From assembly GCA_038087875.1 (NCBI GenBank), contig CM075994.1, positions 4,156,001 to 4,220,000 of the forward strand: a DNA stretch of 64,000 nucleotides, written 5' to 3'. The translations under genes were made by a program, and so were the position numbers. The notes beneath the pieces were generated by a model that was not told the origin of the DNA, did not search any database, and saw only the letters and a program-made list of their open reading frames with translations. Source of the DNA: Malacoraja senta. Its lineage: Eukaryota. This document shows, in pieces, positions 1,957-63,901 of this stretch; position 1 is the stretch's first letter; every line of letters begins with the position of its first letter.

Positions 1957-1992
1957 AAATGGAAAAGCTTAGGAAAGCTGTTCGCGACATGG
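1957..1992 (+). CDS. Putative 36-nt phase 1-1 micro-exon (EMEKLRKAVRDM)
   Basis: acttcatttttgcag | AA ATG GAA AAG CTT AGG AAA GCT GTT CGC GAC ATG G | gtaagg; strong sites, open frame, amphipathic charged peptide. Confidence 0.7.
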
Positions 1993-2858
1993 GTAAGGCA
2001 GCATAAAATGGCATCACTTTTATAGTAAGTTTCAAAGCAGTCACAGCAACTATTGCAAGGAAGATAAATCGGATGAAGTGCTACCACATTGTACAAATTA
2101 ATTGCTACCACAAGATATTTAGGTTGAATTTTAGTTTTCGTGAATTAGATAACATTATTGACTTCTAAAATGACAACGTATCCACGTCACTTGCCTGTAT
2201 TTTAGTTTATTGTCAGAAGAAACGATTCATGCCGCTTGTTACCATATATTTCGTTGCCTTTCACTCTTTAACGTTTCAAATCATGTTGCCTGCACCCTAT
2301 GGATTGCTCTCATGTCTTCAGTATAAATACTACCGCGATCGAATTAGCCATTATATATTTCGATAGAAGAAAGATTAGTGTAAAGTTTTGTACATTCTGC
2401 ATGTGACTTGACGGTCAATCTCGCACGGCAGTATGAAATGGAACACGAATTTAAAGTCGGACGGGTTTGTGGAATTTGGCACCATGGGAAGTTCTAAGGC
2501 CAAATATCTGAAAATATTTCTGAAGAAGATAGATTGCCAGTCAAAAAGGTTTCGGGGGATATCGGCGATAGCGCTGACTTAAGTTAGGCGATCGGTAGAA
2601 ACTAAACGTCTTTGATTGCGGGACAGCTTGATGTTGAATAATGAATTTAACTAAGTATAAATGTACTAACAAAATTAGTTACCCTCTTCGATGTTCACGA
2701 CAGAGAGAAAACTACGTCAGAGAGAATCTGGTATTTCAAAAAATATTTCACTGCTTTGTACCACTTCATTTAAATGTAATAGTTTCAAATGTATATCATG
2801 TAGTAATGGGATTTTCCACATGGCATCAGTGCTTCTTTCCTAAATTCGACTGTTTCAG

Positions 2859-2885
2859 AACTAGAAGGAGAAGGTCAAAACAGCG
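2859..2885 (+). CDS. Putative 27-nt phase 1-1 micro-exon (ELEGEGQNS)
   Basis: ctgtttcag | AA CTA GAA GGA GAA GGT CAA AAC AGC G | gtgagt. Confidence 0.7.
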
Positions 2886-3447
2886 GTGAGTGGTTGCACA
2901 TTTTCCCGTAAATTGTGTTACATTATGTTGATATCGGTAAACATGGACTTGGATTTGCGTGATTGTTGCCGAGAAAACAAATAGCGGTGTAACTTCGGAA
3001 CTTTAAGAAGTAATTATCAACCTGATCCTAAATTCTTGTCACTGGACAGATTAATCTGCTTGCTATCACTATCAACAGATTATTTTATTGGCCTTTTCTC
3101 TTTCAAACAAGTCCTCCAAGCCTTCCATCTAGCGTTGGCATATGTCTGTCGATAGACATAGGATTTTCTAACAGCTCATTTGACCAAATTCAGCAGAATA
3201 GTTTCCAATAGATTTAAACTGCATCTTCAGAGTTGATTTTCCTTAATTATATATAAGGTGGCGTGGGATTCGATATCATATTTGATTTAATAGGAACAAT
3301 GTTGTTCAACTATCAGCGTACTCTTTCACTCGGTGTTGTGTTAATTGCGATGCTGATTTCCCCATAAGCACGTTATTGCATGAAATCTCCCGATCAATAT
3401 TTTGGCATTTCCTCGCTTTGAGACTATTTCAAATTCGCAACAAAAAT

Positions 3448-3740
3448 GGGTGGCGTAGCGGTTGAGTTGCTGCCTTACAACGCCAGAGACCCTTGTTCGA
3501 ATGTGACTACGGGTGTTGTCTCTACGGAGTTTGTTCGTTCTCGCTGTGAGCGCGTGGATTTTCTCCGGATGCTCCAGTTTCCTCCCTCATTCCAAAGTCG
3601 TGCAGGTTAGGAGCTTAATAAGCTTCCGTAATTTGCGAAGGGGAGATAACATAGTACTAGTGTACGTGTGATCTATGAATGGTGCGGACTCGGTGGGTGC
3701 GAATGCCCTTTTTTCACGCTGTACCTCAAAACAAAAACAT
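3448..3740 (+). mobile_element. tRNA-derived SINE, HE1/V-SINE-like
   Basis: A-box-like gtggcgtagcgg, B-box-like gttcgaat, V-domain-like ttctccggatgctccagtttcctccctcattccaaag, CR1-like 3' tail and A-rich end. Confidence 0.75.
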
Positions 3741-3978
3741 AAATTAAAAACACCAAATGAGGACTTCCTGATATTTTAAACCTTCATGTATTGCTTTCTG
3801 GTCAAATATGCGAGTCAGCTTTTATCATCATTCCGAAAATATTCATCAAGCAAATGATATATCAGAGTTATTATGATATGGCACTGAAAGCATTTGTTGC
3901 AATATTAACTATGAGGAAACGCAATCGAATTTAATGAATCAGAAATAGCCGTATTCAGGTCCTGGATTTTTTTTTCAG

Positions 3979-4014
3979 ATCTTAAGGAGATGGAAGACAT
4001 CCGCGAAGAACTAG
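3979..4014 (+). CDS. Putative 36-nt phase 1-1 micro-exon (DLKEMEDIREEL)
   Basis: ttttttttcag | AT CTT AAG GAG ATG GAA GAC ATC CGC GAA GAA CTA G | gttaat; donor weaker. Confidence 0.6.
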   Translation: MLRRWKTSAKN

Positions 4015-4485
4015 GTTAATTCTTAAATATAATTTACCAAATATTTATGTTTCATGCCACAAATAACGGCGGTGCTTATTGCGCATGGTGTCGGTTAATA
4101 TTGGTCTTACATTAGTTGAGAAGATGCGTTTCAAGTGAAGGAATTCACAAATTAAAATATAATTTCTAAATTATTTTATTTGCAAAGAAATATGACGAAA
4201 CCAATATTGACTGAATTATCCAAACAATTTGGTACAATGCGAATGTCAGCATACATCATTTAGTAAGGCACTGACAAAGCACAATTCACAATTGGATATT
4301 CATTTGTACAAAATATTCACATACTCAACTTGAAGTCGTTAGAAAGAAATGTCTATATTTCACTTCCAGTATCCTTCTCTCAAAATGTTATCTTTCACGC
4401 AGGGCTAATGCTCAACTCAAAGTTTGTGCATTCTAATAACTCACCAATCACTTTCAACAACTAGTTCCAATTAATCTCTATCCAG

Positions 4486-5443: not shown

Positions 5444-5470
5444 AGGAAAAATTGCGTGAAAAGGAGTCAG
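5444..5470 (+). CDS. Putative 27-nt phase 1-1 micro-exon (EEKLREKES)
   Basis: tttcatttttcatcag | AG GAA AAA TTG CGT GAA AAG GAG TCA G | gtaacg. Confidence 0.7.
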
Positions 5471-8628: not shown

Positions 8629-8629
8629 G

Positions 8630-12820: not shown

Positions 12821-12847
12821 AGCTGAATTATCTTCGTGAAATTTGCA
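12821..12847 (+). CDS. Putative 27-nt phase 1-1 micro-exon (ELNYLREIC)
   Basis: atttatctttag | AG CTG AAT TAT CTT CGT GAA ATT TGC A | gtaagt (consensus donor). Confidence 0.7.
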
Positions 12848-18403: not shown

Positions 18404-18424
18404 ATCAAGATGAAGTCATGCAAA
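18404..18424 (+). CDS. Putative 21-nt phase 1-1 micro-exon (xQDEVMQ)
   Basis: ctctatttttcag | AT CAA GAT GAA GTC ATG CAA A | gtaaga. Confidence 0.65.
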
Positions 18425-21690: not shown

Positions 21691-21711
21691 GAAAAGGTGA
21701 GGATACAAAAA
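21691..21711 (+). CDS. Putative 21-nt phase 1-1 micro-exon (xKGEDTK)
   Basis: acctctttttcag | GA AAA GGT GAG GAT ACA AAA A | gtaaga. Confidence 0.65.
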
Positions 21712-23822: not shown

Positions 23823-25012
23823 TTATCTACTTTGATTAGATAGCGCGCAAAGAAAAGCCTTTCCCTGCATCTGTGTGCGCGTGGCAATAATAAACCATTA
23901 TCCATAACAATACCAATTGTAGATGACACCAGCATATTAGTTATTTTGATTACAATCAATTTGTCAATTTCTATTTACTGTACAAACAGTAACATAACAT
24001 CTCGACTTCTGTAGTCAGTGCCCTATCTGATGAAGGAAAATATACCGAAACCCTTCTAGACCACACCCGTGACGGCCCCTGGAAGGAACTATGCAGCTGC
24101 ACTCCTAAAGCCCTCTCCCCATCAAACAATAGGTAAAGCAGTTTCACGTGGTTAACCGATCGTACGTTTTGCTGTATCTTGGATTAACTAAACAATGGTT
24201 GTATGTTATTGAGTTCGAGTAAAATACATTTGCGAAAAGCTAGTTGTAAAATAATACATCTTCCTTCAAATCTTTATGTTTCAGAACCAATCGAAGACAC
24301 AAGGAGCTAGACACTGCTGAAAAGTTCGTCGATAGAACAGAATCATTTATCTTTCCACCTTTCTTCCAACGGCATTAGGCTTGATTGGAATACATAGTTT
24401 TTTTGTGTGCTAAATCTGCAATTAACATAGTTATCTGCTAATTCTTGTTCTGAGGGATTGTTCAACATTGCAGTGGAAAATATAGGTGAATTATCACAAC
24501 TAAGCTATTTTTACAATAACTTCTCTGTAATAGCAGCTTGAACATGTCTCGTGGTTGATCATGCTGGTGATCCATACCAGAAATGCTTGTTATTCTCTTG
24601 CACTTATTGGCATGTATTTCAATATTAAGATTTCACAGCTAATGTCGGCACAGATTTCGTACTCATTGGTATTAATAATTACAATTGTTATTGTCATTTA
24701 TGCAAGCCACCAAATCCATTCGATATCCTCATGAAAGTTTGGATAATCACGCCAAACGAACGATCTGCAAGTCAGTATTCAATGCAAATGTTCAGTGAAG
24801 CTCATTTCAATTGAAAACTATTTCAACTCAATCAGTGCAGTGCAGTGCAGTTACTTCATTTTACACAAATATTACTAACTGGATATCAGACGGAAAATAT
24901 TAATTCGTTCGACCATGCATTAACCACGCAAAATTTGCAGAAATCAGAATTGTGTCGCAATAACACAGTGGTCATCGACACTTTAACCAATATATAATGC
25001 ACATGGTAAGAT

Positions 25013-36292: not shown

Positions 36293-39200
36293 CAATCAAG
36301 TGTATTTTCTAAATTCATTTATTAATACCACTAATATTAAAGATGTCTGGAGAATAGAAAATCCAACTGGACGGGAATATTCATTTTACTCTCCAGTACA
36401 CAAAACATACTCAAGAATAGATTATTTTTTAGTTGACTCCCACGTTTATCCCATTTACTTATAACTCAAAATACCATAATATTATAATCTCAGACCACGC
36501 ACCTGTAACATTTATGATTAAATTAAATGGATTGTCAGAGAAACAAACATATTGGCGATTTAACCCACAAATCTTGAACGAAAGATCATGCCAGGAATAT
36601 ATTATTAAACAGATACAAATATTTTTTGAGGTAAATGATAACCCTGACACACCTACTTCTCTTATGTGGGAAACGTTTAAAGCGTTTGTTCGAGGTGCAT
36701 TAATCTCTGCTCAAGTATTTTATAATAAAGAGAACAGGATTAAACAACAAACATTGGAAAGGGAAATCAAGACAACTAGATTTAGACAATGCGAGAATGT
36801 CATCTATTTCAAAACATAATAAAATTGCAGTATTGAAATATCAATTAAATAAAATGTATTCAGAACAAGTAATAAAACTTTATCAAAAAACCAAACAATT
36901 ACATTTTGAATTTGGAGACAAACCACAAAAACTATTAGCACGTCAGTTACGAAAAATGGAAGGGGAAAAAATAATTCATAAAATTAGAACAGAGACAGGA
37001 GAATTATTAAAAATGCCCAAGGACATAAATGAAAGATTTCTCCAATACTATCATAACCTTTATTCAACTAAAGCTGTAACACAAACGGAAGGAATAGCAG
37101 ATTTTTTACTAAAATGTAATTTAAAAGGTTTAGATTCAAATGATAGAGAATTATTAGAAAGGGAGATTACGATAAAGGATATTGAGGAGTCTATTGGCTC
37201 TTTAAAAAATGGTAAAGCAGTAGGACCAGATGGTTTAGGCTCTGAATGTTATTAAAAAAATTATGACTTGCTATGCCCACGTTTACAAAGACTGTATGAG
37301 CATATGTATACTCAACAGAAACTCCCAGATACTTTAAATGAATCTATAATAACACTTATTCCTAAAGCTGATAAAGATCCGGAAGATCCGGGATCTTATA
37401 AAGCAATTGCACTTTTAAATACAGATCAGAAAATATTAACTAAAATACTAGCGCATAGCTTAAGTACAGTGATGAATAAAATAATACACCCTGACCAAAC
37501 AGGCTTTATTCAGAAACGGTACTCATATTATAATCTAAGAAGATATTTAATATTATTTATTCTAAGAGAATGATTAATGAAGATTTAGCAATAATCTCAC
37601 TCGATGCTGAAAAAGCATTTGATCAGGTTGAATGGTCTTATTTATTCTCAGTGATGGAAAATATGCAACTAGGGGAGAAATTCTGTACATGGATAAAACT
37701 GTTATATACAAATCCTACGGCTAGAATATTAACAAATCAAAGGTTGTCACCAAAATTCAACCTATCTAGAGGTTGTAGACAAGGATTCCCGTTATCTCCA
37801 TTATTATTTGCTTTAGCTATTGAACCACTTGCAGAAAGAGTTAGGGGTCATCCGGAAATATATGGGTATATCACAAAGGACACAGTGAATAAAATTTCTC
37901 TATACGCAGATGATGTACTAATTTACATTACAAAACCAGAAATTAGTATTCCAAACTTATTAGAGCTAATAACCCAATTTGGGTCACTCTCAGGATACAA
38001 AATAAATTGGAATAAGAGTGAAATTATGCCAATAAGGGAACATAACAAACACATAATACAACAATTTCCATTTAAAATAGTAAACGAAAAATTTAAATAC
38101 CTAGGTATCTATGTAACTAAGATATATACATCATCATTTAAAGCAAACTTTCCCCCACTACTGAATAAACTACATAAGAATATTCAATACTGGAAAACAC
38201 TCCCTATTTCAATGATTGGCAAAATTAATTTGTCTATTGTTAATGATTTTATCTGGGATTATAAGAACCATAGGATAAACAAAAGACATTTGTGTAAATC
38301 AAAAATAAATGGAGGTTTGGTTTTACCCAACTTTCTGTTTTATTTTTGGGCAGTTAATATTAAAAATATGAATTTCTGGTTGGAAGAAATAGAACAACAA
38401 CCAGATTGGTTAAAAATGGAAAAGGAAGACTGTTTGCCTTTTGATATCGGGTCGATATTATTTGCTACATCTAAATTAAACAAAAAAAATTATAGGGAAA
38501 ACCCTATAATATTTAGTACCATACGAATTTGGAAACAATTAAAAAAGACATTAAAATTAGATAATTTATCACTATTTCTCCCGATTGTGAATAACCCTTT
38601 GTTTAAACCCTCATGGTTGGACAGGGGTTTTACACAATGGAAGAATTATGGAATTAAAAATATGGGACAACTTTATAAGGAAGGCACTTTTCTGACATTT
38701 CAGGAGTTGCAACAGACTTACGGACTTCGAGGAAATGATTATTTCAGATATCTTCAACTCAGAGATTATGTAAAATCGAATACTCAAAACTTTCGAATTA
38801 GAAATTCAGAAATTCTTGACGAATGTTGGAATAAACATCCTAATACAGAAAAATTAATATCTTATATATATAATATCTTATTAGACAGTGACATTCCATC
38901 GACGGACTTACACAGACAAACATGGGAAAAAGAATTAAATGAAATAATAACGAAAGATACTTGGGAAGAAAGTTTACAACAGATACATCAATGTTCATTA
39001 AATGCCAGACATTCTTTAATACAATTTAAAGTAATACATAGATTACATTATTCAAAAACAAAATTACATAAAATCTTTCAACATATCTCACCTATATGTG
39101 ATAAATGCCAACATTTAGAAGCTACCTTATCTCATATGTTTGCAAACTGTACAAAAATTAAAAAATTCTGGGTAAATATTTTTAGTATAATATCTAAAGT

Positions 39201-39897
39201 GACCAGCACACAAGTGGACCTGGATTCAAAAATTATAATACTCGGAACATCAGAATTAAATCAAACATTTACAACAACACAAAGAAACTTTATTGATTAT
39301 AGTATAATAACAGGAAAAAAATTAATTCTAAAATTTTGGAAAGGCCCTACGGCCCCCACAATCAAAATGTGGATTATAGAAATGACGGAGACCTTAAACG
39401 TGGAAAGAATCAGATTTTCCCTGTTGGATAAACAGGAAGTATTCGTTGGAACATGGTCTCCCTTTATTGATTATTTAAATGGTCAGAATGGTTCAGCACG
39501 GGAACCTGACTAATGCTCGGGCTAAAAAATGGATGAAATGCTATATTCTGAAATGTACGAATATATCTCGAATGAAGTTTTTTATTTTAATAATTTTTTC
39601 CACTCTTCTTTAACTATCTTTCTCTTTTGTTTTGTTTTTTTGTTTTGTGTTTCTTGTTTTTTGTTAAAAAAATTAAATATTTTTTTTTTCTCTCTTTTTC
39701 TTCTCTTTCTTTTCTTTCTTTACTTCATCTATCTTTTTAGTTCTATCTAGTTTAAAATAAAAAAAAATAAAAAGGTAAAAGGTATTGGAGACAATGTAAT
39801 AATAATTGATAATATTATCAATTTAAAAATGTAAGACTGTAATGATGTTAATAGGTTATGTACTTATCTCCAATAAAAAATATTTAAAAAAAAAAAA
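36293..39897 (+). mobile_element. 5'-truncated L1-clade LINE (ORF2: end of APE, RT, C-terminal Cys/His motif), 3' UTR, AATAAA, poly(A)
   Basis: SRIDYF, SDHAP, GPDG, SLDAEKAFD, RGCRQGFPLSP, YADD, YLG, CDKC-x8-H-x4-C; AATAAA at 39872, poly(A) 39886-39897; several frameshifts. Confidence 0.95.
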
Positions 39898-49293: not shown

Positions 49294-49911
49294 TCCTTTT
49301 TAAGTCCTACCGCTCGGTTGTAGCTCCTCCCTCAGCGACCTCTCCAACGGCTTTCGGATCTCTGTTAGGAACAAGCCCCCGCGCTCCTTTTTAAGTCCTA
49401 CCACTCGGTTGTAGCTCCTCCCTCAGCGACCTCTCCAACGGCTTTCGGATCTCTGTTAGGAACAAGCCCCCGCGCTCCTTTTTAAGTCCTACCGCTCGGT
49501 TGTAGCTCCTCCCTCAGCGACCTCTCCAACGGCTTTCGGATCTCTGTTAGGAACAAGCCCCCGCGCTCCTTTTTAAGTCCTACCGCTCGGTTGTAGCTCC
49601 TCCCTCAGCGACCTCTCCAACGGCTTTCGGATCTCTGTTAGGAACAAGCCCCCGCGCTCCTTTTTAAGTCCTACCGCTCGGTTGTAGCTCCTCCCTCAGC
49701 GACCTCTCCAACGGCTTTCGGATCTCTGTTAGGAACAAGCCCCCGCGCTCCTTTTTAAGTCCTACCGCTCGGTTGTAGCTCCTCCCTCAGCGACCTCTCC
49801 AACGGCTTTCGGATCTCTGTTAGGAACAAGCCCCCGCGCTCCTTTTTAAGTCCTACCGCTCGGTTGTAGCTCCTCCCTCAGCGACCTCTCCAACGGCTTT
49901 CGGATCTCTGT
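49294..49911. repeat. 91-bp tandem monomer array (~6.8 copies) at the CR1 5' end
   Basis: taagtcc recurs at 49301, 49392, 49483, 49574, 49665, 49756 and 49847; units almost identical. Confidence 0.97.
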
Positions 49912-51975: not shown

Positions 51976-53707
51976 GTAAGAACAGATTGGGTTACGATGT
52001 GCAACCAAAATAAATACACAAATTGGTCAATTACGACCACTTCCATGTCAGATATTGTTTTTTTCCTGGACATGTTGGGTGTCATTTTGCATTACGGTTG
52101 TCGCAATCTCGGCAGCTTCAAATAAACTAGGCGTTTTAGGAATGGTAGTGGATCTACACTTTATAAATGGGATGAGAGCAAGGAATCCGAAATCACGCCC
52201 GCGTTTAATGTACCGAATTCAATGAAGTTACCGATACCAGAGTGTGAATCTGTTGTAGTTTTCGGAGCTAAAGTTAGATGGGGACCCATAGGCTGAGAAC
52301 ACCAGATAGATTAGATTTGATATACCTTCGATGCATACTTCCTGTCATGTGCTTTATTCGTATTAAGACGGGATGTACTGAAGACTAGCCTAACTCTGTG
52401 TAAATATTCCCTGCATGCGTCAACTGTTGCTCTACTTTAAGTGGTAGTTTTGAGCGGAAATAGGTTTGCGCTGGCTTTCGCGTAAAATAAGCCTACCTCT
52501 CATGTTTCACAGAAAAAACAAATATATCGAAAGCTGCAAATGACCCCTTTATGCACACGTCTAATACATTTCAGCAGTCACAAATGTAACCAGAATATTT
52601 GTATAAAGGACATTTGCATACCACTAAAATAAATATAAAACTTTGCAGTTTAAAACTTATGGAACTGAAACATTTTGAATCGTATTATGAATAAAGAGTC
52701 AAGATCGTCGAAATGTCTGCCAATATATCGATGTTGTTACACCAAACGACGCATCGGGTTAGTTGCATGCTGCCATTTGGTTGTATACTAACATAGCTGG
52801 TGGCAGTCGTCCATTTTCAAAAGGTATATTTACAGTCTGTCTCACGTTCAAGATAAGGGACACCACCCAGTTGTAGCTTTGTTCGGTACGAAATATCTCT
52901 GGTAAAACTTAGGACAAAATGCTTCTCCAAAGAAGGGTTAAATTGTTAGAAGTATTATCTCGATGTTTGTCCGGTGGATATGGAAAAAATGCCTGCCAAT
53001 AGATTGATAGTAAATGCAACAGTTTAACAATTTGCCCGTTACGGAAAATATTTTGACGTCAGAATGCCCTTGACAACGCTTTTAGTTTTAACTGAATACC
53101 TTTAACAATGTTTTACTATAGTCTTGCCGCGCTGAAACAATTGGGAATATTTCTATGAATGGAGTGAGCTGCACCCATTCTGACTTTGGTCACGAGAGAA
53201 ATACCAGAGATATCAATGATAACAAAAGCAAACATCGACAATAGGTATGAAAACAATTATTTGTGTTGTTTAAGCTGTATCTCCATTAGACTTTGATCTT
53301 AAAATGGTGTTCACATCAAAAGCAATTTCACAAGTAAACTACGCTTATTATTAAAGGTAAATAATTTGGAAAGAAGCGTGGAACACTTTTAAGGAAATAA
53401 TCCGGCATCGATAACGCAAGGAATGAATATTTAGAAGTAAACCGGGGAGAGACTAACGTGTCAGCATTTATGTGGCAATATCAATTGCAACACAATCGAA
53501 ATGACCGCGGTTATCAACCACAAAATGTTACAGTCAGCAGCATTCTCTTGATTGTTACTGTCCATTGTTATATATTTGGAAAATGTTCATGCGCCACAAA
53601 TTCCTTATCTCACGATTCATTCCACTGGAATGTGTTTTTTTTTCTCCTTACAATAGTTCAGAGTAAAAATCGTGAGGGTACGGATTACTTCCCTCTTTTG
53701 TATTCAG

Positions 53708-53720
53708 ATTGCAATAGAAG
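53708..53720 (+). CDS. Candidate 13-nt phase 0-1 micro-exon (IAIE)
   Basis: ttccctcttttgtattcag | ATT GCA ATA GAA G | gtatgt; supplies the G for the next exon. Confidence 0.45.
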
Positions 53721-53725
53721 GTATG

Positions 53726-53925
53726 TTTAAGAAATAACTGCAGATGCTGGAAAAATCGAATGTAGACAAAAATGCTGGAGAAACTCAGCGGGTGAGGCAG
53801 TATCTATGAAGCGAAGGAATAGGTGACGTTTCGGGTCGAGACCCTTCTTCTGACTGATGTGGGGGCGGGAAGAAGAAAGGAAGAGGCGGAGACAGTGGGC
53901 TGTGGGAGAGCTGAGAAGGGGAGGG
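53726..53925 (-). mobile_element. Penelope-derived short repeat with 9-bp flanking direct repeat
   Basis: Homologous to 27988-28174; mutated hammerhead core (CAGAAGA) at 53822-53855; gaaggtatg at 53717-53725 and 53926-53934. Confidence 0.7.
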
Positions 53926-54790
53926 GAAGGTATGCTTACTTGCGCTCAATATCTCAAATGATCCTCATGTACTAAATGGTGGTTTACGTCTTCAATGTCA
54001 ATATTCACTTTGATAACGTTATTATCACAAGCATCTGCAAATATATATGTTTTTTAGAGCCCGAGACTTTCCCATATCGACATGTATGTCCTTCAGTCTA
54101 ACTGTGGATCATAATACGGAGAGCACAATATTAAAGTGATCGACTACTGACATCGGAGTTGCGTTGCTATAAAGCCAGGTTTCAATTTTTTCTAGGAAAT
54201 TCTAAACAAAATGTTCACAAGTAAAATTCTAAAGTGCTCGTTTCATAGCAAGTATCTTGAATCCTTGGATACATGGCTGGTTGATGTAAATAAATTGAGC
54301 TGAACTTTAATTGCACTGAAATTGGGACAATGGGAATAATAGAAGAGGTTTGGTTTACGTGCTCTACCATCATTTGTTGCAGAACGTGAACAGGTAATCG
54401 TGAATTGGCTTCGTTCAGTTGTGTCTTGATGTTCATTGCTGTTGACCATGGGAAATAAATATTGCAAGTGTGATACAGATCTAATAATCACTATCTTGTA
54501 TTATTGTGCACATTGTAAACCAAGAACTGGCATTGTAAACCAAGAACCTAAGCTGAAGATTGAAATCGCCAAGTATTAAAGGGACAGTGTCGGTGGAAAA
54601 ATACTACATTGTGCGTTTATACTACTACTTTAAAAAAAATCAAATGTGACTTCTCCACTCATTCCAATCAGGTGCTCGTTTTTTTGCCTTGTGGAAAATG
54701 TCGGATATAATTTCCTTTGGCACATGTAGATACACATCCACTGTTATAAAGTAGTAACAAGAAACAATAACTCACTTTTCTTTCCCGCAG

Positions 54791-54922
54791 GTTATGAATT
54801 TGAAATGGAAGCACGCGTTGATGAATGCATCGACACAGGAGGATTACCGATTGATATCAACATTTCAAGTCAAGTTTCCACTTGCAAGCCTGAAACAATG
54901 TCTCAATCCTTTTCTACAAGAG
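54791..54922 (+). CDS. Putative 132-nt phase 1-1 exon (GYEFEMEARVDECIDTGGLPIDINISSQVSTCKPETMSQSFSTR)
   Basis: Branch-like taactcac, ttttctttcccgcag acceptor, 43 open codons, gag|gtaatt donor. Confidence 0.7.
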
Positions 54923-55039
54923 GTAATTATTTACTGAAAACAAGCTGATAATAATGGCAATGTGGTGTAGAAAATAAATGTGCATTTTTAACCTTTCATC
55001 TTGTTAACATCAGCAATGTTTATCATACTAATAATCTTA

Positions 55040-55202
55040 AGATAGACACAAACATCTGGAGTAATTCAGCGGGTCAGACAGTGTCTAGAGAAAAGGAATA
55101 GGTGACGTTTCGGGTCGAGACCTTTCTTCAGACTGCGACTCTGACCCGCTGAGTTACTCCAGCTTTTTGTATCTATCTTCGGTTTAACAAGCATTTGCAG
55201 TT
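55040..55202. mobile_element. Imperfect fold-back Penelope-derived repeat with intact minus-strand hammerhead core (55101-55134)
   Basis: gatagacacaaa...ctggagtaattcagcgggtcag / ctgacccgctgagttactccag...tatctatc arms. Confidence 0.65.
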
Positions 55203-55518
55203 GAATCCTACACATACTATAACTCCATTCTGCAATAAATATCCTGGAAAAGATGCAGCTTGATATCAATGGAATGCGAAGGACATGGTGTTGTTTATTT
55301 CTGATATGGTCTTGAAACAATGAACTCCGGAGCGTTGGTGAGAAGCACCATTTAGGAGCAAAGTCCATATCTAAACCATTCTGAAGAGGCACCCGACCCC
55401 AAACATCGGTTATCCATTCCCTCTACAGATGCTGCCTGATCGAGAGGGTTACTCCACAACCTTGCGCTTTGCTCGAAACCATTCATGCCCTCATGCCTAT
55501 CTTAACTCCGTTGTTATG

Positions 55519-55640
55519 GGCGGCACAGTGGCGCAGCGCTGGGGCTGTCTTACAGCGCCAGAGCCTTTTGATCTTGACTACGGGTGATTTCTGTACTGAG
55601 TCCGTACGTTCTCCCTTTGAGCTCGTGAGTTTTCTCATAC
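55519..55640 (+). mobile_element. HE1/V-SINE-like 5' fragment
   Basis: ggcggcacagtggcgcagcg...gactacgggtg...cgtacgttctccc, similar to 3448-3740. Confidence 0.65.
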
Positions 55641-56473
55641 ACGGAGTCATTTTCAGAATAGTGGTAGTTACACAACAATGAATTCCACCATTTGTGAAAT
55701 GAGATCCCGAATCAGCCAAATTGTAGGAATCACGCTAGTTGAAATTTCAGTATCATCGCATTAGTAAGTTCAACAAAATCTGGCCTCCATTAAGTCATTC
55801 AACATTAAGTCATTCGACATTAAGTTCCATGAATCTCAAAAGTACTGCTTTGCATCAGGAAAGAACAAAATCGAAAAGTCCGTGTTTCACATTCGGCCGA
55901 ATATAAGTAAACGCAGATATAATTTCCATCAATTTGAATGAACATTTCAGCAATTCCAAAACCGGTGGAAAACTTGAAAAAAAGCTGTACAATCAAGAAT
56001 TAAGTCAAGAGTATATAATTGTCATATGTAATGACAATGGAACAGCAGATAACCTTGATGAACCTTAGCAGGCAATCAAATGCTATAACACAGAGATAAT
56101 ACATAATAATCAAAAATGCAACACATTAATAATCATAACATTAGCAAGTATTGTGATCATTATTGATTGAGCGGCGAAACATACTGGATCGGCCGATTGG
56201 CTTCTATTTGCACCGATGATTTGTGAACAAATAAAGTATCTCTCAACAAGTATCTATTGTGATGTTCTGAACAAGTTTTGTTTCGATTATTATAATTGAC
56301 ATTCTGTACGCAGAGGCAAATAGCAGGTTGCATAATATTCAAAATTCTCCTAAAAGAACATCAGGTCTTAGGGAATTGGAACGTACAGGTTGTCCCGTGG
56401 AAACTCGCTCTTTGTTCTTCCGAACAGAATTGTAAATCGTAATAGCTGTCTTCCAAAATACACAAGTTAAGTC

Positions 56474-56846
56474 ATGTACAAAATCACGAGAAGAATGGAT
56501 CGGGTAGGTGCACAGAGTCTCTTGCCCAGAGTAGGGGAATCGAGGACCAGGGGACATAGGTTCAAGGTGAAGGGGAAACGATTTAATAGGAATCCGAGGG
56601 GTAGCTTTTTCACACAAATGGTGGTGGGTGTATGGAACAAGCTGCCAGAGGAGGTAGTTGAGGCTGGGACTATCTCATCGTTTAAGAAAGAGTTAGACAG
56701 GTACATGGATATAACAGGTTTGGAGGGAGCAAGCGCAGGCAAGTGAGACTAGTGTAGCTGGGACACTGTTGGCAGGTGTGGACGTTGGGCCGAAGGGCCT
56801 GTTTCCATACTGTATCACTCTAGGACTCTAAGACTCTATGACTCTA
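56474..56846 (+). mobile_element. CR1 3' end
   Basis: ORF 56474-56746 YKITRRMDRV...TRGHRFKVKG...WNKLP; (gactcta)n tail. Confidence 0.9.
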
Positions 56847-57457
56847 ACTGGTTGACTCCGAGTCCATTTTTTTCTGTTTTCTTGTCTGTAACCGCACTGA
56901 ATGAAAACGAAAACGGTATACATTTATAAACCTATCCCTAACAACATAGAATAATTCCAATCGCACTGGGCCTCGTTCTGTAATACAAGTTGAGGTATAT
57001 TTGCTGCTCTGCCGTTTGGAGGTAATGATAATAATTGGAACTAAAAGTTCTCATTAGAATATCAAAAGGTTAAGAGGAGCGATAGCATATCATACAGAAC
57101 AGGCATTTGGCGAATTACTTGATTGTCCATCTGAAGCATAACATGGCTAACGCAACACGGAAATTCCCAAATGCACTGATGTTTCAAGCAACGAAAATCA
57201 ATGGCCTTCTATTGGCCTGCTTCAGTTGTGCTACCCGGGCCACATCAGATAGTCCATGACGTTATGCTCACAGTTATCACCTGTTAAATAGAAGAGTCCA
57301 GTAATAATAAGTTAACCCGTGTGCCTTGTCATCCAATATTAAAAAAATAAATCGTGACTGAAAAATATGCACCTGATCTGTACTTGCTATTGCAAATATG
57401 GAAACGAAATAAATTCGCCACAGAAATAAAAGCTTGAATTCTTAATGTTGCATATAG

Positions 57458-57493
57458 AATTGGAAAACACCATGGAAACCGTAACTAAGAAAG
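57458..57493 (+). CDS. Candidate 36-nt phase 1-1 micro-exon (ELENTMETVTKK)
   Basis: gttgcatatag | AA TTG GAA AAC ACC ATG GAA ACC GTA ACT AAG AAA G | gtgatc. Confidence 0.45.
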
Positions 57494-57789
57494 GTGATCA
57501 ACACAGATACTTTTTTTAATTTAACCGTGATGAAATATCGTGTACATTTCCATGCCGAACATTTTTAAATTAACAATGTTTCGTTGTTCTACGAGTGAGT
57601 TAAGATTTAGCACGAAATGCCGTTTTCTATCACAATTTCATTTGTTCAAATTTAATTGTATTGATTGAGCAGTTACTTCTTTAGCCGTTTTAATTCATTG
57701 CACTCGGCGTTTAATTTATTTATTGTGAGTTCAGAAAGCGATATATCCATATTCAATATAATTCGGTATTTGCGTTTGTTTATCAACAG

Positions 57790-57816
57790 AACAAATCTCC
57801 AGCCTTCAAGAGAAAG
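57790..57816 (+). CDS. Putative 27-nt phase 1-1 micro-exon (EQISSLQEK)
   Basis: tttgtttatcaacag | AA CAA ATC TCC AGC CTT CAA GAG AAA G | gtgtct. Confidence 0.55.
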
Positions 57817-59054
57817 GTGTCTACTTCGGAAATGGGCAGAGTTCGTTGCATTCTATCTCCATTTTAGAGGTTTCTGACTTTCGTTACTAATTCGTAAAAA
57901 AACGGACTAGCCTTTTCAGAACTCATCAGAAAAAAGGACAATTTGAAAGGCCAAAATGATGGACCCTCGTGCCACCCACACAACCATTACTATCATCCCT
58001 GAGTGCCGCTTCCCTTTATTAACACCATGCCTCTTGGCTTCCTTAATGTCGAAAAACGTGTCAAATCTGACTTTGGATATCCTCAGCTACGTCGTCGCCA
58101 CATTCCTCTTGGATAATGTGTTCCACAGACTGCCTTGAGATGAAGTTTATTTCTCACATTTCTGTCCGGACTGGTTGAATCCTTATTTTGAAGCTGTAAT
58201 CTCTCGTTCTCGCCGAGGCAGGTAATAATTCTACATATACAATGTCAAGAGTCTTAACATTTGCGAGATTATCCCACATTCCTTTAAACTAGCGAGTACA
58301 AATTGATTCTCCCCATAGGGCTAACACTATAAATGCATCATGGCGAAAGACGATGCTGAGAATGTAGATAAGGTAGCGACACATTACTGCGTGATTGTGC
58401 ATTCCACCACCACCACCACCACCACAGGCATACAAACACATAATGTTTCCCTGTTCTTGTGCTTCTTGTTTTGAGTTATCGAGTGAAAGGTGAAAACGGA
58501 AGCTGTTGGAAATCGGAAATGAAAGAAAACATGTTGAAATGCTCATCAGATCAGACAGTGTCTGTGGAAAAGGAAGCAGATAGATCAAACACCGTTGTTA
58601 AGAACTGGAAGAAGATGCATATATTGTGTTTAAGTAGCCGCGAGGATGAGAGAGGAATGAATGATGCAGATGAGATAAGTTTGTATCATATTCTGCTCAG
58701 ACATTGTGAGACGAAGGGTTTGTTCCTGTGCTATACTATGCTTGTTCTATAGTCAGCTCTTTTATCATTGCCCTCTCCTTTACCCGTCCACCAAGCAGTC
58801 CAGAATCCTGTTAGCCATGCTTCAACGGTGCAGACATCAGGCCTCCAGTGACCAACATAGCACGATATCGTTTGGCAATGAAATCGACATCCTTCACGAT
58901 AGCAGCACAGCCAGCCGATCTCGCTAATTGGCGTAAACTGTTCATAGTCAAATATCCTTCTACTATCATTGTGGATCATCCTTTGTGCTTAAATACAATC
59001 GTGAAATAGAATGAAAAGCACGTGGTAAACTATGTATTACTTATTATCAGACAG

Positions 59055-59078
59055 AGTTCTCAACGAAAGAAAATATGG
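59055..59078 (+). CDS. Candidate 24-nt phase 1-1 micro-exon (EFSTKENM)
   Basis: ttattatcagacag | AG TTC TCA ACG AAA GAA AAT ATG G | gtaaat; competing AG 4 nt upstream. Confidence 0.4.
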
Positions 59079-60152
59079 GTAAATGCATTTCAATCTCATG
59101 AACGATAACTCTGCATTCATGAATCAATAATGACACAGACCAGCAACCAGATTTCTGCTTTTCGTCAATTTGAACCAAATATAGCAACAAATGAAATGAA
59201 ATCCTTCTCAGCCACGGTAGAGTTTCTGCCCGACTTTTACACGCCATCCATATTTTGCTGAAATTGTAAATGGACCATCACACTCCAGGTAATTTTGTGT
59301 TATGCCTTAAATGGCTGTATTCGACCAATCATTATGCCCAACCTCGTACGTCCTTTCCCTTGAATGGGAACCCGCTTTCTATATCGCCCAAAGTTAAACG
59401 TATTTAGTGCATTAATGGAATCGAGTTTGAATTTGCCAGTTCCTCCACCCCTATAGGTTTCAATTGCATCTGAACCGGATTTCATCATGAACATAAATAC
59501 AAACCAAATTGTCATGTCCAGAATGAGAGGTGACATCAGCTCCTATTCACTAGCCATCAACACAAGTGAGGCTCTAGGCTATGTGTTTATTCTTAAGCTC
59601 TACTCTCCTTCAAATGTTAAAGGTGGACGATACATGGGCGAGCGTTAACCTCGAGGAAGCATATAAGAACCCGAAATAATTGGTATGGCAGAGGTGGAAA
59701 AGTAGTTTATTTTCGAGGCTGAGTCAACAGTGAAGTAATTCACCCGAGAAAAAACCCACGCAAAGCAGTATCTTCCAAATCGTTGCTGCATTTATATCAA
59801 ACTTACCACCAGGTGTATCTCTGTGCCTTCACTGAGACAGTAAAACAGACTTCTAACTCCGGGTTCCTGTATTACCATGTTCATTTAACCTTAGCGGGTA
59901 TTCTTGCTTGATTTCATTTTATTTACCATGATATTTTAGCTCTGAATAATTACTGCAAACGCTAAACCAGCTTAGCTCTTCAAATCGTTGAGATATATGT
60001 CTGATCGTTACATGTGAAATCATATGAACAACTAAATGACGTGATCATAACGAGATAGATTATAAACTATTCAAGATTCTTTTAGAGGTTGCAGGCGGAA
60101 GGCAAATATAAATAAATGATTAATACATGTAGGATTTCGTTTCTATTTGCAG

Positions 60153-60176
60153 AACTGGCAAAATCTGAACAAGCAG
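60153..60176 (+). CDS. Putative 24-nt phase 1-1 micro-exon (ELAKSEQA)
   Basis: tttcgtttctatttgcag | AA CTG GCA AAA TCT GAA CAA GCA G | gtgaag. Confidence 0.6.
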
Positions 60177-60769
60177 GTGAAGAAACATGCATGTCAATGT
60201 TATTGTCGTTAATTGGAGAAATCTGTAATTTGTCTTGCTAGAGGTTGTAAATTATGGTTGAGAACACAAAACTATTGTTCTATTCTTTAAGTCAACTTCC
60301 ACATAAGAAATAGGAGCAGAGATAGGACATTTTGCCCTATGGCTTGCCCCATCATTCATATGCGTATTCTTCATTCATTAAAATACATCCCACTGCTATA
60401 CTGTAAATGTTCGGGCTATGGACATCCTTTGACCACATATGCCATGTGCCATACCTTCAGATAGTTAGCGCAGAGGCCTACAAAACATCACACACTATTT
60501 TTCTGTCTGGGTTATGTCGCTTGCCTTAATGGAAGGCTTTACATACTCCACAAAGAAATGTGTTCAGCATGCTCTAATTCGCAAGTGCCACGACTAAAGA
60601 ATTTGTTTCTACTTTCAAAGGCGTAAAAGTTAAGAGACAAGCACCAAACATCGGTAAGGATTGCAGTTCGTGTTGAAATAAGTAAGTTCATTAGTAACTG
60701 TATGTTTCGTCTGGTGACTTCAGAAATACTTCTGTTAAGAAACTGCATTAAGAAATAGACGCCCTGTGC

Positions 60770-60925
60770 ATTAAAGACATAGTTAGACAGGGACGTGGAT
60801 AGTACATTCTTGGAGGGATATGGACCAAAGCGCAAGTAGGTGCGACTGGTGTAGCTGGGACATGTTGGTTGGTGTGGGCAAGTTGGGAGAAGGCTGTTTT
60901 CACGCTATAAGACTCTGTGACTCTA
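60770..60925 (+). mobile_element. CR1 3' UTR fragment
   Basis: Similar to 56680-56846. Confidence 0.7.
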
Positions 60926-61649
60926 TTAGTTTTGCATATTATACCTGATCCGATTAATCCATTCAATACGTGGAAAATTATGTAATGGAAGTTGCAACCC
61001 AAATCTGCTGGACTAAAATCTAATGTACCAGCAACGCTCATGTAAAATGACACTGATGCTCAATTACACTTTCAACCTTCAATTTTGATATCAGGTTGTT
61101 TCCCAAAGTAATCGAAATTGTGTATGCCGTAATAGCAAACCATATAGCGTTCGCCTGGGTGCTTGTTACAATCTTCTTCTCTTCGTGCATTTAGGAAATA
61201 AGCTTTCAAGCCAACGAAATCGCAAATAGTATTCATATTTAAAGTAATTTAATTTCTCTGATGCGGGCATTTATCACGAGGACAATTTTATTTGCTGTGT
61301 GACAAAATCCTATTGCAAATTGTAATGCGTTGCTTTAAATCTAGATTGTGCTTGAATCCACAGTTCAATAAGAATTTATTTAATAAGATGAATGAAATGA
61401 ATATAATACACACGCACTACGTTTACGCTCTTCTGTCATCGAAGAGTGTGTTCTTGAGCATAATTTCATATTTTACGGAACAAATAATACTCCTTTCCCA
61501 AAGTGAGACAGATCGGCCTTAAACTGGAAACAGAATCCTGTTGAAAGGGATTAATCCATTATTTTGCACATTTTGAGAATACGTTGATGACCCTTGTGTC
61601 TTAAACTAATAAAAAATGTCGCTGAATCGATATCACTTTTTTTAATACA

Positions 61650-62235
61650 AGAAGTGCTGGAATAACTCAGCAGCATCTCTGGAGAACATCAATAAGTGAT
61701 GTTTCGGTTGGGTCTTTTCTTCAGACTGATTGTGGTGGTGGAGGGGGGAGAGCTGGCGAGACGAGGTCTGGCAAGATAACAGGTGAATACAGGTGTAGGT
61801 GTGGGGCAATTGGCAGAAGGTTGCACAAAAGCCAGAGATGAATAGAGAAAATATGTAAAATAATGAGATGGGGATAGAAGACGCAGAGGTGGAAGGGGAC
61901 AGAGGTAAGAGGAAAGGGAGATATGCGCGCGGACCCAGTGGGGCACTGGAAGAGCGAGAGGGGGGGCAAGGGAGGGGATGTCTGTTACTTAACTAAAACT
62001 GGAGAATTCAATCCCCATAAAGTCAGGCTATAGGCTACCCAAGAACACAAAGTGTTTTCCTCCAATTTATGCGTGGCGCCACTCTGGAGTTAGGGGAGCC
62101 CCCGATCAGAAAGATCAGTATGAGATTGGTAACGGGTGAGCAACCGGGAAAGCCAACAGCCCTTGGCGGAGCGAACGTAACTGTTCGGCGAAACGTTGCA
62201 ACCTAGGATTCTCCGATCTCCCGGATGCCGAGCAA
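61650..62235 (-). mobile_element. Penelope-like element 3' end (GIY-YIG C-terminus plus terminal repeat with decayed hammerhead)
   Basis: Reverse strand HKLEE...LGSL*PD..GIEFSSF remnant adjoining the ctgaaga...ccgaaacatcac repeat. Confidence 0.65.
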
Positions 62236-63290
62236 TAATCAGGCATTCCATTGCGTTCGTCCAGCGGATTGTTTATGCTCCAGATTCGAACATCTACTTC
62301 CATCTGTCAGTACGCCTAGATCTTTGAACTCGAAACCAATGCATTTTTTAGATTTACGACACGATGTTATTAGGTTATGTATGGCTAAATAAATTATGAT
62401 ATTTGGCAGTTTTATTTCAAATAGTTTATTTGTCCCCTCCCTGAATATATGTACATGGCAAATGAATAAACCCAATGAAGAACGAGTGTAGACTCTCCCA
62501 CTGCCATCCAATACAATTGTGACAGTCGTATAAACCATTAAAATCATGTTCAATTCGGGTAATGGGAGGGGCGTGACTACTGACGAGAAACAACAGAATC
62601 AGCACTATTATGTTTGGTGGTTACCAAGGTTGGTGAGGAATTGGGTCTCTTTGAGCGATTACTTCATCTCATCACTCTGCCAAACGTTCCTGTCTGCCAC
62701 TAGATATGTTTAGAATAAAGTGGAGCATACCATTTTCCTCTGTGAGCACAGTTCCTAGAGCGAAAAGTTCTATATCATCCCAGATGAAATCCTACCTTCC
62801 ATTGACAATCAATACACTATGTTAAATATCTGTTTGCACCATTACTGGTACAAGAAGACCAAATGGTCAATGTATAACATGTCCGGAATCAACGTACCTT
62901 CTAAACGCGAGACTTTGGCATAGACGATAACTGTATAAGAATAACGTCACATTTACGTTTCTCTCCAAGAGAAACGCCATTTTGACTTCAAAATATATCA
63001 CAGTTTCTTCATTGTCCTTGCGCCTAAATATTGGAGTTTATTTATGTAGCAGCGAAAGACTTCACTCGAAAAAATGCTGGCCCTCCCTGCGACGCTCTCA
63101 TATTGCTAACTAAAATAAAATTGCGAGGTTCGAAATGTAATGCAAAATTTCACGATAACACGTATTTGGTACACCGCTGTAGTAAATGATGCCTGCAATC
63201 TCAGTGAATGGGAGGGATGGATGCAGACTATTGATGATCAATGTATGTTGTCACTGTTGACATAACATCTTCCCCTTCATATGTCTTCAG

Positions 63291-63308
63291 GTTTCGCAAC
63301 TCAAGAGG
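63291..63308 (+). CDS. Putative 18-nt phase 1-1 micro-exon (GFATQE)
   Basis: cttccccttcatatgtcttcag | GT TTC GCA ACT CAA GAG G | gtaagc. Confidence 0.6.
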
Positions 63309-63564
63309 GTAAGCCTAAAATATTCCAAAGTACGTGTTGCGATCTATTTAATGTTATTATATCGCTCTGAATTAATTTGAAATTACCCTCGGATGTAATG
63401 AATAACTAGCTTTATTTTAATTAAATATTGAGCAGTGCCGATTTCTTCACCCTAATAAATGTAAACTAAATTTGACTTCAGAAAATAAATAAAGCCTGCT
63501 ATATTTGAATAGTTTGATTTTCACGCATTGAACTCTTGTCTATTGTTCAACCAACCTGTTTCAG

Positions 63565-63591
63565 AGTATGAATTACTGCGGCAACGACTGG
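63565..63591 (+). CDS. Putative 27-nt phase 1-1 micro-exon (EYELLRQRL)
   Basis: acctgtttcag | AG TAT GAA TTA CTG CGG CAA CGA CTG G | gtaaac. Confidence 0.6.
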
Positions 63592-63877
63592 GTAAACTGC
63601 GTCTTTGAGTCAATGTTTAATCTTCAAAGGAGGACATAAATCCGCGCATTCCAAAATCTAAATCATCGTTCAGTACATTTATCCCTAAATGATTCGCTGA
63701 TAATGAAGTAGAATTTTAAATAGCGTTATAATAGCAATCCACCGACACCCTACTTCAATTGCTCAATATATCATAATAAATGAAACATTGTTTTTTTTTT
63801 AAATTGAATAAATTTTTATCAGGATACATGTTTCATTTGCTGCTTAAGTTATACCTTGTCATCGAATGATTCGCCAG

Positions 63878-63901
63878 TTGCAACTTTACAAGAAATTGCA
63901 G
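63878..63901 (+). CDS. Putative 24-nt phase 1-1 micro-exon (VATLQEIA)
   Basis: attcgccag | TT GCA ACT TTA CAA GAA ATT GCA G | gtaatc. Confidence 0.5.

Follow-up and report, generated by a model that had tools for sequence, protein, structure and literature searches.

The window analyzed here, a 64,000-nucleotide stretch from Malacoraja senta, probably covers parts of two neighboring genes, A1 with its 3' end and A2 with its 5' beginning, both belonging to a tandem, MHC-linked family of cartilaginous fishes whose micro-exons are under purifying selection. Their products are predicted to be cytoplasmic parallel rods of about 900 to 1,400 residues, likely serving sister proteins with a terminal B30.2 domain as dimerizing scaffolds or regulators; we give this account as a whole moderate confidence. 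For A1 and A2 we infer expression, as well as the location, dimerization and role of their products. An initial annotation had proposed a hidden host gene, or genes, built from symmetric phase-1 micro-exons and encoding a coiled coil, and our analysis supports that proposal.

All 15 segments of the annotation that can be located lie on the plus strand in low-copy DNA, as it had said, with AG and GT bounds, the lengths given and an open phase 1-1 frame. A bracketed 21-nt segment came without coordinates, and no well-scoring 21-nt candidate was found between 21711 and 54791 (best score 9.3, versus 14.9 and 17.1 for the two listed 21-mers). With splice matrices whose training set was confined to 40 exons lying upstream of the window, candidates of 15 to 45 nt numbered 17 on the plus strand (13 with a length divisible by three, 11 of them also open in phase 1) and 10 on the minus strand (three and two, respectively), bearing out the anticipated plus-strand excess. 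With a second model, trained on 253 exons all outside the window and its duplicate, 10 plus-strand and no minus-strand candidates in the window scored 14 or higher.

Six of the seven previously listed exons between 1957 and 21711, all on the plus strand and assigned to A1, are intact in a paralogue, B. These comprise a 36-nt phase 1-1 coding micro-exon at 1957-1992 (10 of 11 residues identical), a 27-nt exon at 2859-2885 that is 24 nt in B, an in-frame length change, a 36-nt exon at 3979-4014 with a weak donor (GTTAAT) and 11 of 11 residues identical, a 27-nt exon at 5444-5470 encoding the same peptide in B, a 27-nt exon of a recurring Cys-ending class at 12821-12847, and a 21-nt exon at 21691-21711, the last internal exon called. 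The exception, a 21-nt exon at 18404-18424 (score 17.1), is less secure because it has no aligned counterpart in B. The list was also incomplete: on the same strand it missed a 27-nt exon at 2704-2730 (score 12.5), conserved in B with its AG, GT and frame, and two terminal exons. At 24285-24310, the likely terminal coding exon of A1 has seven codons followed by TAG (24308-24310); the stop is conserved in B, and the acceptor is the highest-scoring one beyond the last internal exon (12.4 in A1, 12.8 in B). A possible alternative terminal exon at 27187-27206, with five codons and then a stop, is conserved in B in acceptor, frame and stop position. A decayed 24-nt plus-strand exon at 24109-24132 retains its donor, and in the alignment its acceptor reads AA versus AG in B.

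A2 likely begins with the 132-nt plus-strand exon at 54791-54922, which resembles the ATG exon of A1 (117 nt, C18:3,923,115, conserved in B) in type and at its 3' end. The segment is present as annotated, but its first 14 nt are probably 5' UTR, with an ATG at 54805 and a phase-1 donor; a protein search found no match to this exon. Downstream on the same strand lie micro-exons of 36 nt at 57458-57493 (score 18.5), 27 nt at 57790-57816 (16.7), 24 nt at 59055-59078 (12.2) and 60153-60176 (27.1), 18 nt at 63291-63308, 27 nt at 63565-63591 (13.8) and 24 nt at 63878-63901. The 18-nt exon has generic splice scores of 6.2/5.2 and a score below 9 in the family model; a matching 18-27-24-27 run is found in A1 at C18:4,023,681-4,028,070. 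The 27-nt exon behind it also has a positional match in A1. The last one, whose acceptor is weak (negative-scoring), is called on the basis of its positional match to a 24-nt A1 exon that likewise starts with TT. Positions 27673-64000 are part of a 51.4-kb repeated stretch (99.84% identity) directly behind a 200-N gap; the repeat is likely an assembly effect, with both haplotypes represented, rather than a genuine duplication, and five substitutions between the copies correspond to alternative letters in runs X1/X2.

Exons of the same kind fill the surrounding region. A splice-site scan of C18:3.26-4.52 Mb (1.26 Mb), run without a length prior, gave 394 plus-strand calls, 160 of them 27 nt and 88 of them 36 nt long; the 150 minus-strand calls include none of 27 nt and three of 36 nt. 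At a score of at least 12, about 7% of calls are expected to be false (34 minus versus 501 plus). Exon calling leaves some exons missed. The resulting tandem cluster comprises at least six genes and about 470 micro-exons in 1.4 Mb, with 90 to 140 micro-exons per gene, mostly of 27 or 36 nt, spread over 170 to 320 kb. A second gene combining a rod with B30.2 is found at C18:5.65-5.71 Mb, where the 36/27 alternation is near-perfect. Phase 1-1 exons of 27, 36 and 24 nt with a continuous heptad pattern place the cluster in a chondrichthyan rod-B30.2 family.

The coding unit is not the heptad but 9 or 12 residues; a 36-nt plus a 27-nt exon gives 21 residues, or three heptads. In genomic order the exons retain the heptad register across joins. 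The periodicity peak, at 3.46-3.52, was reached by 0 of 200 exon-order shuffles for A1, A2, G0 and G2b and by 2 of 200 for B; in G2 it is marginal (11 of 200). The suggestion that exons can be skipped freely is not supported. RefSeq isoforms of the orthologues of G2 in electric ray and catshark differ by 6- or 9-residue cassettes, so single cassettes can be lost in frame, but the heptad register is then lost. Free skipping also sits poorly with the exon order, in which a 36-nt exon is followed by a 27-nt exon 102 times and by another 36-nt exon 12 times, and with the removal of most of the 3.5-residue periodicity when that order is shuffled. When residues 12-196 of the Narcine rod were modeled in two copies, a parallel in-register dimer was predicted with a score of 0.33 (best control 0.00), with runs agreeing in at least 50% of contacts and a partner pLDDT of at least 59. 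The mark is 0.32: among solved pairs 21 of 30 attain it, in animals 7 of 16, and among single chains 0 of 23. The Narcine score lies at the mark, and its pass may reflect likeness to solved coiled coils.

The 9- and 12-residue micro-exons are under purifying selection, as judged by comparing A1 with B. Of 107 aligned exons, 100 are intact (30 more were not aligned); in control segments with lengths not divisible by three, both ends are kept in 9 of 22. Identity at the three codon positions is 0.857/0.878/0.765, and 0.766 (about 77%) in introns. The dN/dS ratio of 0.39 (bootstrap 0.31-0.49) indicates only moderate constraint. All three length changes are multiples of three, and predicted core positions are more often identical than others (124 of 151 versus 418 of 595, P=0.003). 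Seven A1 exons have broken sites in B, and one exon has been lost in A1.

One cluster member, G2, closes with a single B30.2 exon with a phase-1 acceptor at C18:3,733,604, whose SPRY match is above cut-off. This exon, together with synteny to the elasmobranch MHC, upholds the kinship to butyrophilin and BG heptad-exon tails that the annotation had drawn. Across C18:2.75-4.52 Mb the search turned up no B30.2 exon belonging to A1, A2, B, G0 or G2b; within that scope the 3' end of A1 is covered, with conserved stop exons, and the 3' region of A2 contains an assembly gap. The G2-type domain forms a chondrichthyan clade (100/100; 13 rows among 46), its frame is open at all five loci examined (C18:5.71 Mb, three on C5, and G2), and the nearest solved domain is that of BTN3A1 (89 bits versus 72 for TRIM58).

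RefSeq models XP_069775384-90 (Narcine bancroftii), XP_038672306-10 (Scyliorhinus canicula) and XP_042192744 (Callorhinchus milii) fall in this clade, the first two also sharing exon-level motifs with G2; databases thus already contain family members in the form of automatic models, under the misleading names 'zinc-binding protein A33-like', 'TRIM39-like' and 'nuclear-pore anchor-like'. The spliced evidence in public protein sets is confined to orthologues of G2. The exon model of G2 can be aligned, with matches spanning its joins, to catshark XP_038672306 (E 3e-25, 92 bits versus a shuffle maximum of 45) and Narcine XP_069775384 (E 3e-20, 76 bits versus 44). A1 reaches 47.8 and 45.4 bits against the same two proteins (shuffle maxima 36.6 and 37.0), and A2 aligns weakly (33.5 bits versus 29.3; 31.6 versus 31.2). 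A chimaera protein of 1,697 residues combines a long rod with a G2-type B30.2; neither A1 nor A2 resembles the chimaera rod better than shuffles do.

The cluster is linked to the MHC. It adjoins RPS5 and phostensin (Pfam), along with what we take, by likeness, to be a nurim-like exon and RBM4-like neighbors. The order and relative strands of the neighbors match the MHC chromosomes of sawfish, catshark and white shark (supplement of PMC10751288, in part). In the white shark and sawfish annotations, the syntenic place is a blank of 1-1.8 Mb.

Location and domain type suggest a possible immune role for the family. There is a real though minority chance that the rods instead serve a structural purpose unrelated to immunity, as filaments or tethers of the cytoskeleton, of germ cells or of some other specific tissue, the MHC position and the B30.2 heads of a few members being historical. 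Five of six cluster units are without a detectable B30.2 exon, yet A1 and B are under purifying selection that is strongest at the core; narrow expression would account for the lack of annotated genes in white shark and sawfish; and a soluble BG tail, the 'zipper protein', is reported to act on actin-myosin (PMC5938342, in part). Against this reading stand the B30.2 frames kept open at every locus examined, a turnover of copy number with exon gain and loss that resembles immune families, and BTN3A1 as the nearest solved domain.

As to gene number, the single gene annotated across the window is, from its sequence, likely two: A1 ending at the stop at 24308-24310, and A2 starting with its ATG exon and first micro-exons from 54791. 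The annotated join from 21711 to 54791 is probably not a real splice. Since every exon is phase 1-1, any order would be in frame, and the plus-strand chain could be transcribed as a single giant unit or as two, A1 continuing into A2 for instance; the stop exons would then be alternative ends, and a B30.2 exon would lie concealed in the assembly gap at C18:4,431,207. Such a unit would suit the 132-nt exon, open along its entire length, a 1.18-Mb catshark model at the syntenic place, and the last exons of A2, which resemble those before the B30.2 exon of G2 and are followed by a gap at a similar distance. We nonetheless consider it improbable: A2 is colinear with the middle part of A1, repeating its exon order over 57 aligned exons (exon-level score 790 versus a shuffle maximum of 253), and A1 and B share the ATG exon, an upstream exon not divisible by three and both stop exons, the duplicated unit starting and ending there. 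In addition, the catshark has seven separate models, no closer B30.2 paralogue was found on another contig, and a short stop-exon candidate at C18:4,425,045 would give A2 an end of its own.

The annotation had also looked to flanking Ig-V/transmembrane or B30.2 exons; only B30.2 was found, in G2. A profile of 14 Ig segments gave a best E of 0.25 over six frames of C18:2.75-4.52 Mb (1.77 Mb), and a motif scan and a scan for long exons were negative. Long phase 1-1 candidates include no transmembrane segment (highest hydropathy 1.7, intronic-looking), the called exons no signal segment, and a profile of 33 TRIM N-termini, with a best E of 0.75 in the cluster, gave neither RING nor B-box. Ig and RING/B-box motifs are absent from eight database members of the clade, and Pfam returned only PRY/SPRY for the two scanned. 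The start exons of A1 and A2 are polar, and 19-residue hydropathy over called micro-exons peaks at 0.44 and 0.57, respectively; further 5' exons beyond those called may exist. The absence of a signal or transmembrane segment suggests that the rods are cytoplasmic. That the arrays are tails of butyrophilin- or BG-type receptors with unrecognized Ig and transmembrane exons is thus very improbable, despite the phase-1 heptad micro-exons, the 21-nt exons near the 3' end, the MHC linkage and the closeness to BTN3A1. Decaying pseudogenes or chance splice-like motifs can hardly explain arrays with such strand and length asymmetry, constraint, codon-position pattern, retained splice sites and register across joins, even with the broken exons in B and A1; a very recent inactivation of A1 or A2 is possible.

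Among known systems, chicken BG shares with the cluster a long coiled coil encoded by many small split-first-codon exons, MHC linkage, turnover of copy and exon number, and length altered by splicing (PMC5938342 and PMC8813856, in part). BG genes differ in having signal, Ig-V and transmembrane exons, not found in the cluster, and 27-38 exons of 21 nt per gene, whereas the cluster has mostly 27- and 36-nt exons, three heptads per pair, 90-140 exons per gene and, in some members, a B30.2 end. Mammalian BTN3A1, BTN2A1 and BTNL likewise have a heptad region followed by B30.2, and the parallel dimer predicted for the family resembles theirs; BTN proteins have an IgV-IgC-TM front and only a few heptads (PMC8813856, in part), whereas the family has no ectodomain, a length of up to about 190 heptads and, in A1, no B30.2. 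TRIM39-like and A33-like TRIM/B30.2 proteins also combine a cytoplasmic coiled coil with PRY/SPRY in MHC-linked clusters, but the family is without RING or B-box, and its B30.2 clade is separate from the TRIM-type domains of the same genome. TRIM rods are antiparallel and encoded by few, larger exons. Guinea-pig enterophilins are cytosolic, with about 30 heptads and B30.2, and are not known to carry RING or TM; these mammalian proteins are likened to the family by architecture. An interaction of enterophilin-1 with SNX1 is listed (PMC13749957, in part).

Because a 36-nt and a 27-nt exon make three heptads, rods would grow by duplication of exon pairs and blocks. Each exon being frame-neutral, splicing could change rod length; loss of a pair would keep the register and loss of one exon would make a discontinuity. 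In members with B30.2, a long dimeric arm would carry a head that binds ligand, and headless members such as A1 may form pairs with these proteins or with coiled coils of the cytoskeleton, much like the soluble BG tail.

At least six giant genes fill a part of the elasmobranch MHC, 1-1.8 Mb long, in which the white shark and sawfish annotations show no gene. That small symmetric exons can encode heptads is already known from BG; an architecture in which 90-140 micro-exons make up one gene and exons of 9 and 12 residues combine to three heptads is an extreme one, invisible to exon-by-exon searches. A bolder and rather unlikely reading is that this megabase blank of sharks and rays is an undescribed immune complex made up of free 'butyrophilin tails', giant rods, some headed by B30.2 and others headless, that pair combinatorially and are tuned in length by splicing of the frame-neutral exons. 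They would conserve an intracellular module that came later, in butyrophilins and BG, to be joined to an Ig-TM front. Besides TRIMs and butyrophilins, the family offers a third, testable kind of B30.2 protein with MHC linkage, and it bears on the origin of the heptad-exon tails of BTN and BG.

All 15 locatable segments of the initial annotation, which had described a single gene of at least 15 phase-1 plus-strand micro-exons, are present in the window as described. The plus-strand excess is borne out by two models trained outside the window: one made 11 calls on the plus strand against 2 on the minus strand, and the other, a family model, 10 against none at a score of at least 14. Three of the 14 short segments (59055, 63291 and 63878) scored below 13 or were uncalled by the family model, the last two being backed by a matching 18-27-24-27 run in A1, the gene whose 3' end lies in the window. 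A scan of 1.26 Mb that applied no length prior made 394 plus-strand calls, of which 160, 88 and 27 have lengths of 27, 36 and 24 nt; the corresponding counts among 150 minus-strand calls are 0, 3 and 2. On C18 (contig CM075994.1), the family model at a score of at least 14 returned 442 calls in 3.06-4.43 Mb (the duplicated stretch left out), with 26 further calls at 2.98-3.06 Mb, versus 17 on the minus strand of the whole region. The sequence covered comprised C18:2.75-4.52 Mb as a whole, C18:5.65-5.71 Mb and three stretches of a second contig, C5; a generic splice matrix drawn from general knowledge was too strict. No RNA run was listed for positions 54400-64000. In X1 and X2, the two sequencing runs compared with the window, no exon-to-exon joint was found among the 15 joints listed (1,241 others), and intron coverage was even.

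The micro-exons of A1 and its paralogue B are coding exons. The two genes are paired by an old segmental duplication (C18:3.920-4.184 Mb with 3.225-3.542 Mb), in which 107 of the 137 A1 calls align to B, 100 of them intact and 7 broken; the reverse mapping gave 97 intact, 2 broken and 12 unaligned. Retention is 56% for intronic AG dinucleotides and 53% for GT, and both ends survive in 9 of 22 control segments. In the phase-1 frame, codon positions 1, 2 and 3 show identities of 0.857, 0.878 and 0.765, with introns at 0.766, and dN/dS over 97 exon pairs is 0.39 (0.31-0.49). Four apparent stops arise at joins, one in A1, two in B and one in G2b, another unit of the same tandem cluster. That in A1 vanishes on adding an overlooked exon of 33 nt that B conserves, and both in B involve low-support calls.

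The segments probably do not form one gene across the window, as had been proposed: A1 and B share stop exons 3' of the segment at 21691-21711, and the 132-nt exon at 54791-54922 is of an ATG start type. A short stop exon at 24285-24310 is common to A1 and B, with a second candidate at 27187-27206, and similarity between the two genes stops near 27,856. The start of A1 lies about 233 kb before the window, in a 117-nt exon with its ATG at +3. B retains this exon, with an in-frame indel, and in front of it lies a conserved exon of non-3n length at which the duplicated unit starts. The 132-nt exon, with its ATG at 54805, is of the same type and likely begins the downstream neighbor, A2, whose chain tracks the middle part of A1 exon by exon (57 exons aligned at a score of 790, versus a maximum of 253 in 20 shuffles). 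The window thus probably holds parts of two genes, of about 137 (A1; about 1,310 residues) and 90 (A2; about 860 residues) called micro-exons. They belong to a cluster of at least six units (G0, B, G2, G2b, A1 and A2); for G0 and G2b, the boundaries come from chain gaps only. As a protein query, the 132-nt exon returned one candidate and none at E<=0.1; neither start exon matched Pfam, nor did two open frames near the A1 3' end at E<=1. Upstream of the A1 ATG exon, a 540-bp block (C18:3,922,126-3,922,668), 78% identical in B, carries a conserved acceptor and a short upstream ATG frame, and is possibly a UTR exon or regulatory element.

Positions 27673-79004, counted from the window start, recur at 99.84% beyond a 200-N gap (C18:4,183,673-4,235,004 and 4,235,205-4,286,536), the copies differing by 27 substitutions and 56 gap columns. 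Five of the seven inter-copy substitutions in 52500-64000 appear as alternative letters in X1 and X2. A true recent duplication is judged less likely than a haplotype artefact; the repeat fits two haplotypes assembled in tandem and is likely a false duplication. The genome, of 1.94 Gb, has many LINE frames. Within the window, a tandem repeat of several near-identical units, recognized by eye, adjoins a LINE (49300-49910), and an AT-rich plus-strand element with a 659-residue open frame (36433-39513) is presumably L1/Tx1-like.

The predicted product is a coiled coil with a register continuous across exons. Hydrophobic residues mark positions 2, 5 and 9 of the 36-nt exons (80%, 83% and 64%) and position 4 of the 27-nt exons (56%). 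After a 36-nt exon, the next is 27 nt long in 102 cases and 36 nt in 12, and the 12 + 9 residues of such a 36+27-nt pair make three heptads. Period-3.5 power lies above all 200 exon-order shuffles in A1, A2, G0 and G2b, and is matched by 2 of 200 in B and 11 of 200 in G2. Conservation is 82% at core positions versus 70% elsewhere (P=0.003). Since the heptad register runs through the exon joins, the earlier view that these exons can be skipped freely holds for the reading frame, which any skip preserves, but not for the register, which is kept by pairs only. Among the 27-nt exons, classes with His-x-x-x-Asp or a terminal Cys recur cluster-wide (for example, 12821-12847), regularly spaced within a higher-order run some seven exons long; they could provide inter-chain metal or disulphide sites.

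Exactly one B30.2 exon was found by profile search in C18:2.75-4.52 Mb, at 3,733,604-3,734,121, where it has a phase-1 acceptor and closes G2. Of the two domain types suggested for inspection, the flanks yielded B30.2, and no Ig domain was found (best E 0.25). The profile was built from B30.2 exons of this genome, two of its nine seed frames being wrong-frame; an earlier motif scan had missed the G2 exon, and a genome-wide SPRY search placed none in the cluster among the 150 of 696 candidates scored. RING and B-box domains were not found in the cluster region (best E 0.75), nor hydrophobic segments in the gene models. Domains of the G2 type occur at C18:5.71 Mb in a second micro-exon gene (71% identity to G2), three times on C5 at 15.35 and 17.41-17.47 Mb (37-39%; micro-exons were called upstream of two, and a single one for the third), and in proteins of Narcine (XP_069775384-90; 65%), catshark (XP_038672306-10; 49%) and chimaera (1,697 residues; 38%). 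The G2 domain and its relatives form a clade with support 100/100 (13 of 46 rows), against a mostly unnamed outgroup made up of every fourth match from P0040 onward and four TRIM-type domains from this genome; in the same tree, very short branches separate a B30.2 domain of this genome from a neighboring Leucoraja protein, so the animal is probably a skate or near relation. Across its joins, the exon model of G2 matches the catshark and Narcine proteins at scores far beyond those of shuffles; the match is modest for A1 and marginal for A2. When the chimaera rod served as query, nothing but the rod itself and its older model came back among 8,000 candidates. Five isoforms in Narcine vary in a 6-residue cassette, a 9-residue cassette and their starts, and among three catshark isoforms a 9-residue cassette and the starts vary; RefSeq isoforms usually rest on RNA reads.

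Downstream of the cluster lie RPS5 and phostensin, identified by Pfam, and an exon without a Pfam match that we take to be nurim-like. The cluster is split at 3.55-3.60 Mb by a gene with a Pfam zinc knuckle, presumably RBM4-like; near-identical tandem copies (99.62%) flank a 200-N gap there (C18:3,547,488-3,603,891), likely a false duplication that doubles this gene. The upstream bounds are, as we would name them, a 2,406-residue AHNAK/periaxin-like repeat frame (C18:2,826,961, plus strand) and a FoxG-like forkhead frame (C18:2,949,134, minus strand). Retrovirus-like pol and env frames adjoin an assembly gap at C18:2,761,630-2,768,000. In excerpts of a published supplement, the sawfish MHC chromosome shows phostensin, rps5, a nurim-like gene, 962 kb without a gene and then an RBM4B-like gene; white shark has 1.83 Mb without a gene behind NRM, in catshark seven unnamed models on the same strand, 177 kb to 1.18 Mb in size, occupy the corresponding place, and in reedfish dhx16 lies within 7 kb of nrm (PMC10751288 supplement). 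The gene-free stretches of sawfish and white shark may hold the micro-exon rod family, and the catshark models, which lie upstream of NRM, may be members, judged by position, strand and size only.

The micro-exon rod genes are real, and some members are already in databases as misnamed automatic models. No description of the family was found in the literature searched, with most subscription journals outside its coverage; in excerpts of an account reporting butyrophilins in cartilaginous fish, the family is absent (PMC12841164). In its working it resembles a BG or butyrophilin tail freed of its membrane part. By defining domains it is not BG, BTN or TRIM.

AlphaFold2 predicted three long helices over residues 4-195 of the Narcine protein (pLDDT mostly 55-83), the B30.2 part not being folded (mean 49). 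Two copies of the rod were modelled parallel and in register over residues 107-146; the exon pair encoding this segment is found again in A1, A2 and B. The dimer score was 0.33 versus 0.00 for the best control, at the mark of 0.32 reached by 21 of 30 solved pairs (animals 7 of 16) and 0 of 23 single chains, a pass that may reflect likeness to solved coils. The prototype would be a cytoplasmic rod, dimeric and parallel, that bears a B30.2 head. Headless A1, its rod kept under selection, may act as a scaffold or regulator pairing with headed sisters or cytoskeletal coils, a reading that draws on precedent: a soluble BG tail acts on actin-myosin, and BG tails have been proposed to pair with orphan B30.2 domains, according to excerpts of these reports (PMC5938342, PMC8813856). 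A purely structural role of the rods is a serious rival to this pairing role.

Within A2, five to six tandem copies of the 36+27-nt pair with intron similarity still visible (C18:4,353,175-4,372,998) represent recent growth by three-heptad units. The B30.2 exons on C5 mean that the family is also present off the MHC scaffold. The member outside the cluster at C18:5,652,784-5,710,525 has an almost perfect 36/27 alternation and near-identical repeated exon pairs, and is a good model for rod growth.
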